Shown here piece after piece: positions 51,014 through 53,774 of a stretch of 64,000 bases of DNA. Numbering within the stretch: the stretch's first letter is position 1; each line of letters begins with the position of its first letter. The notes under the pieces are model-generated. The model was not told the DNA's origin. It was given only the letters and a program-made list of their open reading frames with translations, and made no database searches. The translations under genes and the position numbers were made by a program. The stretch is from Spizellomyces punctatus DAOM BR117 (taxonomy: Eukaryota), in NCBI GenBank assembly GCA_000182565.2, contig KQ257460.1; one strand, written 5' to 3'.

Positions 51014-53774
51014 ATGGGAGGGGAGGATAGACCTCGCAAAAAGATCAGAGTTGATCAGTCCAAGGACAAGAAGGCCACCCCTGCAGGGAATGGGACTGAC
51101 GCGGCAAATCCGTATCTGGCCCACCGCAACAAGCTTCCCACACTCGTACCGCACAAGACGACATCCGAACAGGCTGAAGCGTACGAGGATGCCGAAAACA
51201 ACTTGTTTACTGGCCGACCATTCACGCCGAAATACCGTGAGATCTTGAAAAAGCGACGCAACCTACCTGTGCACAAGCAGCGCGATGAATTTCTAGAGCT
51301 CGTCCACAACAACCAGGTCATTATCTTGGTTGGAGAAACAGGTTCTGGCAAGACCACGCAAATTCCCCAATTCCTTGTTTACGACGAGCAGCCCCAAATG
51401 AAGGGCAAACTAATCGCATGCACGCAACCTCGACGTGTTGCTGCAATGTCAGTTGCCAAGCGTGTGGCAGAGGAATTGGATGTGTCTCTTGGTGAAGAAG
51501 TTGGTTATAGCATTCGTTTCGAGGACTGCACCTCTCCAAGAACGGTGTTGAAATACATGACTGACGGTATGCTACTGCGAGAGGCTATGCATGACCCACT
51601 GCTGGAGCGATATTCGGCCGTCGTTTTGGATGAAGCGCACGAAAGAACGCTTTCGACAGACATTTTGATGGGATTGATAAAAGAGGTGTGCTCTAATTGG
51701 GAATCTGCACCAGCACTTGAGCAACTGACGCTGACATGGGATTTGCTTTTCAGATTTGCAAGCGACGAACCGATTTGAAAGTGGTCGTCATGAGTGCTAC
51801 TCTAGATGCTGGAAAATTCCAAAAGTATTTCAACGATGCCCCTCTCCTGGTAGGTTTATACCCCTGCTCTGTTTCTTGTTCGCATTTCGTCCTCTTGAAC
51901 GGCCTATCGTCCGACATATGCTAATAGATCCCCGTCGTTCATAACTCATCGTGTCATATCCTTGATGCATTTTCATTGTTCACCGTGTCGGTACCTCTCC
52001 TCTTCTGTATCGATTGGCCGGGACGATAGGTCGTGCCTGGACGGACCTTCCCAGTCGAGATTTACTACACGCCCGAGCCTGAGCGGGATTACCTTGAGGC
52101 GGCAGTTCGGACCGTTATTCAAATTCACACATGCGAAGAACCCGGCGACATCCTGGTCTTTTTGACCGGAGAGGAAGAGATTGAGGATGCCTGCCGTAAA
52201 ATTCGCGCTGAGATCGATAGTATAATCCAAGCGTCGCCGCAGACCGTAGGGGATGTAAAGGTCGTGGCCCTATATTCCTCCCTACCCCCAGCCCAACAAC
52301 AGCGTATCTTTGACGATCCCCCACCACCTCGGTTCCCAGGGGGACCCGCTGGTCGAAAGATTGTAGTCTCAACGAACATTGCGGAGACGTCGTTGACCAT
52401 TGACGGTATTGTCTATGTTATCGACCCAGGTTTCTCAAAGCAGAAGGTGTACAATCCTCGTATCCGGGTTGAAAGTTTGCTGGTTAGTCCCATCAGCAGA
52501 GCCAGTGCACAACAACGCTCTGGACGTGCTGGGCGTACGCGACCTGGAAAGTGCTTCCGACTGTATACGGAAAAGGCTTTCCTGAAGGATTTGCAGGAGC
52601 AGACCTACCCGGAAATCTTGAGATGTAATTTGGGCACAGTAGTGTTACAACTGAAGAAGCTTGGCATTGATGATTTGGTACATTTCGACTTTATGGACCC
52701 TCCAGGTACAGGGCTTAATGCTTTTGTGGGTACTGACGGTGGTAGACGAGGAGGCTAAGAAATTATTACCTTTCAGCACCCGAGACTTTGATGAGGGCTC
52801 TGGAGCTCCTGAATTACCTCGAAGCACTGGATGATGACGGAAATCTTACCACCGTTGGAGAGCAGATGGCTGATTTTCCCCTCGATCCTCAATTTTGCAA
52901 AGCGCTCCTTTCTTCACCAAAATACAAGTGTTCCAACGAAATACTTTCGATCATTGCAATGTTGTCTGCACCAAACTGTTTCATCCGACCAAATGATCAA
53001 CGACGGCAAGCGGATGAAGCCAAGAGTCAGTTTACCCACCAGGACGGGGATCACCTCACCCTCTTAAACGTATTCCATGCCTACAAATCAAAGGAGGGAG
53101 ATCAGAGCTGGTGTTACCAAAACTATCTGAATCAGCGAAGTTTGAAGAATGCAGACAATGTGCGAACTCAGCTCGTACGGATTATGGAAAGACGAGGCTT
53201 GGAGCTTGTTTCAACACCTTTTGAAAGCAAAAAATATTATGAAAATATTCGGATGGCTTTAACGGCTGGGTTCTTCATGCAAGTTGCACATTTAGAGAGG
53301 ACCGGACATTATTTAACGAGTAAAGATAACCAGGTGCGTTGCGTGGCTAGTGCTGAAGTCTTTCGTTGGGTGCAAAAGGGAGTATCACAAGGATTATAAC
53401 TTTACCTGAGGTACACTGTGACGTTATAAACATCAACACTCTAATTTTTTCATGAGTGACACTCCCGTTTCGCCCATCGATGAGACGCGCTGCCGAATTT
53501 ACATAACGTTTTCTGACTCTTTGCGTTTTTTCACTGATAGGTCGTCCAACTTCACCCCTCCTGCGGGTTGGATAACAAACCCGAGTGGGTGATTTACAAC
53601 GAATTTGTCCTGACCACCAAAAACTACATTCGAACCTGCACCTCTGTGAGAGGCGAGTGGTTACTGGAGGTTGCGCCGGCATACTACGATTTGGAAAACT
53701 TCCCGAAGTGCGAGGCTCGCAGAGTGCTGGAAAGGATTGCTACTAAGAATTCTCAGCAAAAGAAGAGACGGTAA
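51014..53774 (+). CDS. PRP43: DEAH-box helicase Prp43/DHX15
   Basis: [70 protein letters not shown]. Confidence 0.97.
53385..53459 (+). ncRNA. Intronic box C/D snoRNA, predicted 18S rRNA guide (host intron 53334-53540)
   Basis: Box C AGGATTA 53390-96, D' CTGA 53406-09, C' GTGACGT 53418-24, D ATGA 53452-55; guide AACACTCTAATTTTTTCA is complementary to conserved 18S TGAAAAAATTAGAGTGTT; long flanking stem. Confidence 0.85.

Follow-up and report, generated by a model that had tools for sequence, protein, structure and literature searches.

Intron 2 of the gene for the helicase Prp43 in Spizellomyces punctatus DAOM BR117 is a candidate regulatory element and behaves like a structured intron with a distant branch point. 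The acceptor joined in the mRNA is predicted to be hidden in a helix whose stability is unequalled among the predicted introns surveyed, and the best-scoring branch candidate lies far upstream of it. The preferred reading, a tentative one that is credited with somewhat less than an even chance, holds that the acceptor-occluding helix of this branch-point-distant intron slows its splicing and thereby acts as a functional brake. All positions refer to the window, i.e. the whole stretch of 64,000 nucleotides (contig KQ257460.1) that was analysed.

The PRP43 gene and splicing of intron 2

The gene was identified by protein match: exon 1 of the region agrees at 100% with a 744-aa protein of Spizellomyces punctatus (P0001), and the encoded product is the DEAH helicase Prp43. 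A ubiquitin-S27a (eS31) fusion gene with introns adjoins it at 55046-55657.

51014..53774, + strand: PRP43 (DHX15) gene, five exons, 744 aa
51014-51685, 51754-51849, 52030-52705, 52777-53333 and 53541-53774, + strand: PRP43 exons, the join of which equals P0001 exactly
51850..52029, + strand: PRP43 intron 2, 180 nt, phase 0 (between PLL and VVPGR); joint "skips 180, GT..AG" in run X10
51850..51855, + strand: 5' splice site of intron 2, GTAGGT, an ordinary major-class donor at about the 75th percentile of donor scores

Intron 2 is of the major (U2) class, with GT-AG ends, and is removed from the mRNA, as is evident from the X10 joint and from the spliced protein P0001. The X10 contig (481 nt, depth 11, without differences from the window) skips introns 1 and 2 and uses acceptor 52029. 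Four of 14 listed RNA runs were compared with the region, isoform information coming from X10 only; run X12 yielded 6 reads on the region among 26.4 million read, and run X1 two partial, unrelated exon pieces. The contigs of X10, which drop rare forms, contain no second joint, none at 51927 and no contig retaining intron 2. An unspliced contig from run X7 (51700-52332) was not counted as retention, as it includes part of intron 1 too and is probably DNA. Among the 120 protein matches listed, no truncated-isoform protein from Spizellomyces punctatus was present.

The intron holds AGs at 51852, 51926 and 52028 only. As the initial annotation had pointed out, use of the upstream AG at 51927 would produce a 78-nt intron and an in-frame extension that runs into a stop at the true acceptor; in translation, 33 codons are added before the acceptor TAG terminates a product of 289 aa, and retention of the entire intron leads to an earlier stop at 280 aa. 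The in-frame stop at the acceptor is in itself uninformative, since a phase-0 intron that ends in TAG will produce it whenever the frames match, which happens in one case out of three. The premature stop of the 51927 isoform lies upstream of two further introns, and the genome encodes UPF1, so that an NMD factor is present. The presence of UPF1, the unusual anatomy and the identity of the gene as PRP43 together make intron 2 a fair candidate for regulation, and to this extent the initial annotation is supported. The feedback switch that it proposed is hypothetical: only the 52029 joint was found, and the branch that 51927 would need is weak.

As a background, a small ab initio gene finder of our own was run on 61 stretches totalling 664 kb, namely the window plus 60 pieces of 10 kb. 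It contains no term for branch sites or structure, found all four PRP43 introns, and delivered 807 internal introns, 289 of them confident, which are predictions and not annotation and have a median length of 64 nt. With its 180 nt, intron 2 compares to at least 150 nt in only 8 of the 289 confident predicted introns.

The predicted acceptor helix

The pairing of 51899-51912 with 52021-52034, on which the proposed switch had been built, was confirmed in its coordinates and in its 14 base pairs with one G-U; its energy is -28.6 kcal/mol. A second helix of 6-7 bp extends it, and both taken as one gapped duplex reach -37.1 kcal/mol.

51899..51912, + strand: 5' arm of the 14-bp helix; pair probability 0.99; single copy
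52021..52034, + strand: 3' arm of the helix, made up of 9 bases at the end of the intron, acceptor TAG (52027-29) included, and the 5 bases that open exon 3
51887..51892, + strand: intron arm of the second, 6-bp helix, which pairs with 52039-52044 in exon 3 and extends the main helix; pair probability 0.82
51951..51968, + strand: predicted inner hairpin, 6 bp (18 nt); pair probability 0.69
51983..52017, + strand: predicted inner hairpin, 11 bp, with a pyrimidine loop; pair probability 0.79-0.95; loops out 35 nt between the branch candidates and the acceptor
52011..52020, + strand: imperfect tandem copy of the acceptor region, with which the 5' arm may pair as long as the 3' arm is not yet transcribed

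Since the pairing reaches into the exon, with 5 bp of the main helix in addition to the 6-bp second helix, it fits an action on the pre-mRNA. The productive acceptor AG (52028-29) is indeed buried according to the fold prediction: opening 52029 would cost 11.4 kcal/mol, as opposed to 1.3 kcal/mol for AG 51927, and still about 10-12 kcal/mol with any in-loop branch engaged. This cost is the highest of 287 introns (next 10.9 and 10.8, median 3.5 kcal/mol).

During transcription, the 5' arm might briefly pair with 52011-52020, in which case the outcome could depend on transcription speed. This alternative fold is about 12 kcal/mol weaker and leaves the AG free. Its probability rises to only about 0.4-0.5 while roughly ten bases are transcribed, and 30 of 2,981 random segments do as well (1-2%); being statistically marginal, it is kept only as a possibility.

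The stability of -28.6 kcal/mol is equalled by none of the 806 other predicted introns and at 3 of 25,698 AG sites (two distinct helices; one third of AGs sampled), whereas by length alone, with G-U allowed, 14 bp occur in 3 of 806 introns and at 63 of 25,698 AGs. The -37.1 kcal/mol duplex is equalled by 0 of 802 introns, 2 of 12,000 random AGs and 10 of 5,000 shuffles, and the fold of the whole region has a z of -2.49 (3 of 200 shuffles). The chance rate for such a helix is thus about 1e-4 to 2e-3 per site. With some 906 short introns per 664 kb scaled up to about 33,000 for the genome, this corresponds to 3 to 60 such acceptors by chance. Several being expected per genome, the helix alone is no proof of function.

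The 5' arm also pairs with the acceptor region of intron 4 over 11 bp (-16.0 vs -25.2 kcal/mol), which ranks tied third of 807 acceptors. That acceptor (53532-53545) has GATAG before and GTCGT after the junction in common with the acceptor of intron 2, which is partly due to the Val-Val codons following both introns. At one mismatch, the arm pattern occurs at 17 sites vs 9 for the control, and exactly only at the two arms, so that no repeat family is present. A miniature transposon with terminal inverted repeats was dismissed as well, there being one copy whose 3' arm includes the conserved Val-Val codons.

Branch sites and the upstream AG

The branch model, likewise self-built, was trained on short confident introns, in which most branches lie at a distance of 11-26 nt to the acceptor; only 96 of the 289 confident introns have a strict CTRAY close to their 3' end.

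51893..51899, + strand: weak branch candidate TCTTGAA (A51898), 7th percentile; 29 nt from 51927 and the sole one at usable distance
51919..51925, + strand: best-scoring branch candidate TGCTAAT (A51924), predicted, 84th percentile; in the loop, 105 nt from the acceptor
51926..51927, + strand: upstream AG (proposed poison acceptor), 3 nt after A51924; no joint in X10
51928..52027, + strand: AG-free zone of 100 nt, by sequence scan
51943..51949, + strand: second branch candidate AACTCAT (A51948), 64th percentile
51977..51983, + strand: third branch candidate TGTTCAC (A51982), median score (137/280); 47 nt from the acceptor, at the foot of an inner hairpin

The 100 nt without AG upstream of the acceptor, already remarked in the initial annotation, have a chance of about 0.017 as judged from the intron AG frequency, and an equally long zone occurs in one of 12 other long predicted introns. 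Its further statement that a good nearby branch is missing holds up to 45 nt, the near-branch score of intron 2 being as low in 4 of 280 introns at 9-30 nt and in 1 of 280 at 9-45 nt, but beyond this the median-scoring TGTTCAC is available at 47 nt. As 52029 is used although no good branch lies within 45 nt, a distant branch is needed. Intron 2 combines the absence of a usable branch within about 40 nt with a long AG exclusion zone at whose 5' edge the predicted branch is located. In mammalian introns with distant branch points, the branch is likewise described at the 5' edge of the AG exclusion zone, and a near AG is bypassed (PMC1431707).

The best candidate, A51924, would be cheap to open (1.2 kcal/mol by fold prediction). 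The motif GCTAATAG at 51920-27, which had been put forward as a branch site with its acceptor, is present, but its branch A stands 3 nt from the AG instead of the usual 11-26 nt, so that CTAAT and AG 51927 hardly function as a pair; AG 51927 would therefore need a different branch, the weak A51898. Skipped AGs 2-9 nt after the branch are found in 42 cases in 163 predicted introns. Moreover, the inner hairpins (18 and 35 nt) are predicted to place the in-loop branch candidates within about 12-50 effective nt of the acceptor.

These observations bear on the view that the intron is a switch with a poison acceptor, in which the helix would hide 52029 and divert splicing, via a branch at A51898, to AG 51927, giving a 289-codon substrate of NMD. 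The exposure of AG 51927, the near-normal 78 nt of the resulting intron, its donor-to-branch distance of 48 nt (median 46), the position of the stop ahead of two introns and the presence of UPF1 all accord with this view, as does the fact that introns ending in CTRAY-AG exist (3 of 289 predicted introns and, likewise, intron 4). Nevertheless, the switch is decidedly unlikely: the required branch scores in the 7th percentile and has a strong competitor 3 nt before the AG, the X10 contigs have no joint at 51927, and unwinding by Prp43 would favour the productive acceptor. The last point also bears on the sign of any feedback, as a Prp43 that unwinds the stem over the productive acceptor would raise output, i.e. 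act as positive feedback.

The sign required for negative feedback would be recovered if the helix worked as a zipper, looping out AG 51927 and bringing 52029 to A51898 at its foot, so that unwinding would lay the poison AG bare. Distance-shortening stems that conceal cryptic AGs have been described (PMC3239191), and occupancy of A51898 is predicted to lower the opening cost of the acceptor to about 4 kcal/mol. With the footprint forced open, however, the inner helix is lost (pair probability 0.0), engagement would cost about 18-21 kcal/mol, and the branch at A51898 is again the weak one; of the readings weighed here, this is the least credible.

Two further uses of the upstream AG were rejected, namely recursive splicing, there being no GT after AG 51927, and a 63-nt cassette exon (51928-51990), which has a weak donor (score -0.19) and a downstream intron of 39 nt without a branch.

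As for the other introns of the gene, intron 3 (52706-52776) has a strong TACTGAC branch 40 nt from its acceptor with AGs between, and a gene model of Spizellomyces sp. 'palustris' (P0121) takes an upstream AG there, a possible alternative acceptor that would be frame-shifting in the present genome. Intron 4 (53334-53540) is long, with 207 nt, a fold z of -1.74 and a normal branch 24 nt upstream of its acceptor; it contains a C-box-like GTGCTGA and four CTGA, with no rRNA complement above 10 nt in the readable rDNA.

The minor-class motif and other element classes

The sequence ATATCCTT at 51956-63, noted earlier as resembling a U12 donor, is present; in its extended form it also fits the branch consensus of the same class.

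51956..51966, + strand: ATATCCTTGAT, which fits the minor-class consensus for the donor as well as that for the branch, without a partner site

A minor spliceosome is encoded in the genome, where U11 (76 bits) and U6atac (49 bits) exceed the Rfam cut-off and U12 (42 and 35 bits) falls under it; the AT-AC intron pattern has 37 matches vs 5 for the control, and minor introns of Spizellomyces punctatus have already been published (PMC10639083). The two U12 snRNA-like genes below the cut-off (L013 1501-1665 and L014 1501-1643, both on the minus strand) carry GUAAGGAUAAU as their branch-pairing region, so that the ideal minor branch site resembles the minor donor.

A decoy for the minor spliceosome may accordingly be envisaged, with U11 or U11/U12 on ATATCCTTGAT activating AG 51927 or holding the RNA in a manner similar to the USSE. 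The genome offers the factors for it (U11, U6atac, the two U12-like genes and AT-AC introns), and the motif is complementary to this genome's U12 and stands 28 nt after AG 51927; its chance in 180 nt is 0.001-0.013, according to how it is defined. This is very unlikely all the same, given that the motif was chosen after the fact, occurs as one copy where the USSE is described as a tandem pair (PMC5473595), differs from the ATATCCTTY of most candidate minor donors in the genome and is absent from the orthologous intron of L016 (see below). Membership in the USSE was rejected on the same ground, with one RTATCC site in intron 2 and tandem motifs required.

Several other element classes were also rejected. 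For a nested AT-AC intron, the only CCTTRAY overlaps the donor motif and no branch precedes AC 52023-24, and one ending at AC 51982-83 would have no upstream donor. A snoRNA is contradicted by the lack of any C, D or H box in intron 2, with a longest rRNA complement of 9 nt (about half of the rDNA stretch being readable), and no other Rfam RNA matches intron 2 at E up to 10.

Conservation of intron 2

An intron at the same position was found in one of 80 metagenome loci, L016, which shares 83-87% identity with chytrid proteins. The breaks in read-through peptides from other fungi fall at this position too. The position of the intron is hence old. The prokaryote collection gave five loci and the viral collection none.

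The L016 intron is AT-rich, 147 nt in length, and has several internal AGs and a branch 26 nt from its AG; aligned with that of Spizellomyces punctatus it scores no better than shuffles (182/500). The acceptor helix is absent from this one distant ortholog (duplex and opening values for L016 being one base off the junction), and so is any motif of the ATATCCTTGAT type. In the Hyaloraphidium-like read-throughs P0249 and P0368, the peptides suggest fitting branches 14-17 nt from the AG. L016 and these read-throughs being ordinary, the architecture appears not to be general in chytrids.

The L016 intron possesses an internal hairpin of its own (818-864, about 45 nt) in an AT-rich background, with z = -1.81 for the fold as a whole; its sequence bears no relation to that in the window. 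In Powellomyces hirtus, PRP43 is annotated as two consecutive genes (P0128 and P0123), one of which reads into intron 1; the second half begins with MP directly before VVPGR, exon 2 is in neither half, and another model is whole. The split annotation may reflect odd transcripts or an assembly fault.

Inverted copies of a junction can originate by a local template switch. The intron may be neutral: a branch-distant intron in which chance or such a switch has created an inverted copy of the junction, and whose helix is cleared or never forms and leaves expression unaffected. The per-site chance of 1e-4 to 2e-3 across tens of thousands of introns, the single-copy arms, the absence of the helix from L016 and the normal product alone in X10 make this a serious possibility, only slightly less probable than the brake. 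It leaves unexplained why one intron should unite the most stable helix and the poorest near branch with great length and an AG-free zone, features which may be non-independent.

A proposed splicing brake and possible discard by Prp43

According to the preferred reading of a brake, an ancient major-class intron would have become branch-distant and structured in this lineage. U2-type branching would take place at an adenosine in the loop, most likely 51924 and possibly 51948 or 51982, and AG 51927 would be skipped as too near the branch. Two inner hairpins may then shorten the path to 52029, with the outer 14-bp helix hiding the acceptor, so that exon ligation would have to wait for its opening, presumably by Prp16/Prp22 remodelling, which is an extrapolation by analogy from the described remodelling role of these factors. 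Slow substrates would be lost either by Prp43-dependent discard or by retention and subsequent NMD.

In-loop branching together with an acceptor waiting behind about 10-12 kcal/mol would render intron 2 a natural candidate for discard. Prp43 is described to discard slow substrates, at either step, in vivo on native transcripts, and introns whose precursor is discarded by Prp43 are longer (10.1101/224170). Cactin, which is required for some branch-distant introns in S. pombe (PMC9508853), is encoded in the genome, as is UPF1. Against the brake, the Cryptococcus intermediates discarded by Prp43 are reported to have shorter, not longer, branch-to-acceptor distances (10.1101/224170), and yeast stems near splice sites are reported without a correlation to the spliced fraction (PMC12350175). 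In addition, no retention or alternative joint appears in the one informative run, and the helix is missing from L016.

Since unwinding gives the wrong sign, negative feedback would have to run via discard. The helix would then stall intron 2 before exon ligation or divert it to AG 51927, with the discarded fraction rising with Prp43 activity. Such a discard sensor is unlikely, and feedback specific to Prp43, by any route, is equally improbable. Open-licence papers and preprints yielded no account of PRP43/DHX15 regulating itself through an intron of its own.

Relation to known systems and significance

With mammalian distant-branch-point introns, intron 2 shares an extended AG-free zone that has the candidate branch at its 5' edge, and a close AG that is bypassed. 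The mammalian cases are described as relying on a pyrimidine tract and scanning (PMC1431707); intron 2 has a predicted helix over the used acceptor. Hairpins between branch and acceptor that shorten the distance, as predicted for intron 2, are described for yeast COF1 and UBC13 (PMC3239191), APE2 and RPL23B (PMC11585973) and in PMC12350175, where structure governs the choice of acceptor. The downstream yeast stems, however, mask cryptic AGs and keep the real one free, whereas the strongest predicted helix in the PRP43 intron covers the real acceptor and leaves the cryptic one exposed.

Like yeast RPL30, RPS14B, RPS9, RPL22B and YRA1, in which unproductive splicing lowers output, PRP43 is an RNA-handling gene with a structured intron; those proteins, however, bind their own pre-mRNA, whereas the idea for PRP43 is one of enzymatic, sequence-independent discard (cf. 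PMC11585973). Also comparable are the spliceosome-mediated decay of BDF2 and S. pombe TER1, in which the intermediate is released because the second step is slow, and Prp43 acts on native transcripts. Those RNAs are mainly unligated, whereas here the ligated product is an essential mRNA and the substrate would be Prp43's own transcript (compared with the account in 10.1101/224170). The USSE of SNRNP48 and RNPC3 also has a minor-class donor motif that is unused in splicing and lies downstream of an unproductive major-class acceptor, yet the motif in PRP43 is single, not tandem, and its host gene does not encode a U11/U12 protein (by the description in PMC5473595).

If intron 2 is neutral, it illustrates that such a helix is tolerated. 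Even without feedback, it would provide a test case for how the spliceosome reaches a predicted double-stranded acceptor in an early-diverging fungus. Spliceosomal discard has so far been demonstrated chiefly with mutant substrates, natural examples being few (10.1101/224170). A natural intron in the gene of the discard helicase itself, with a helix that can be mutated, would make discard as homeostasis testable. If the discard sensor is real, its feedback would read the activity of a quality-control enzyme rather than the binding of a protein.
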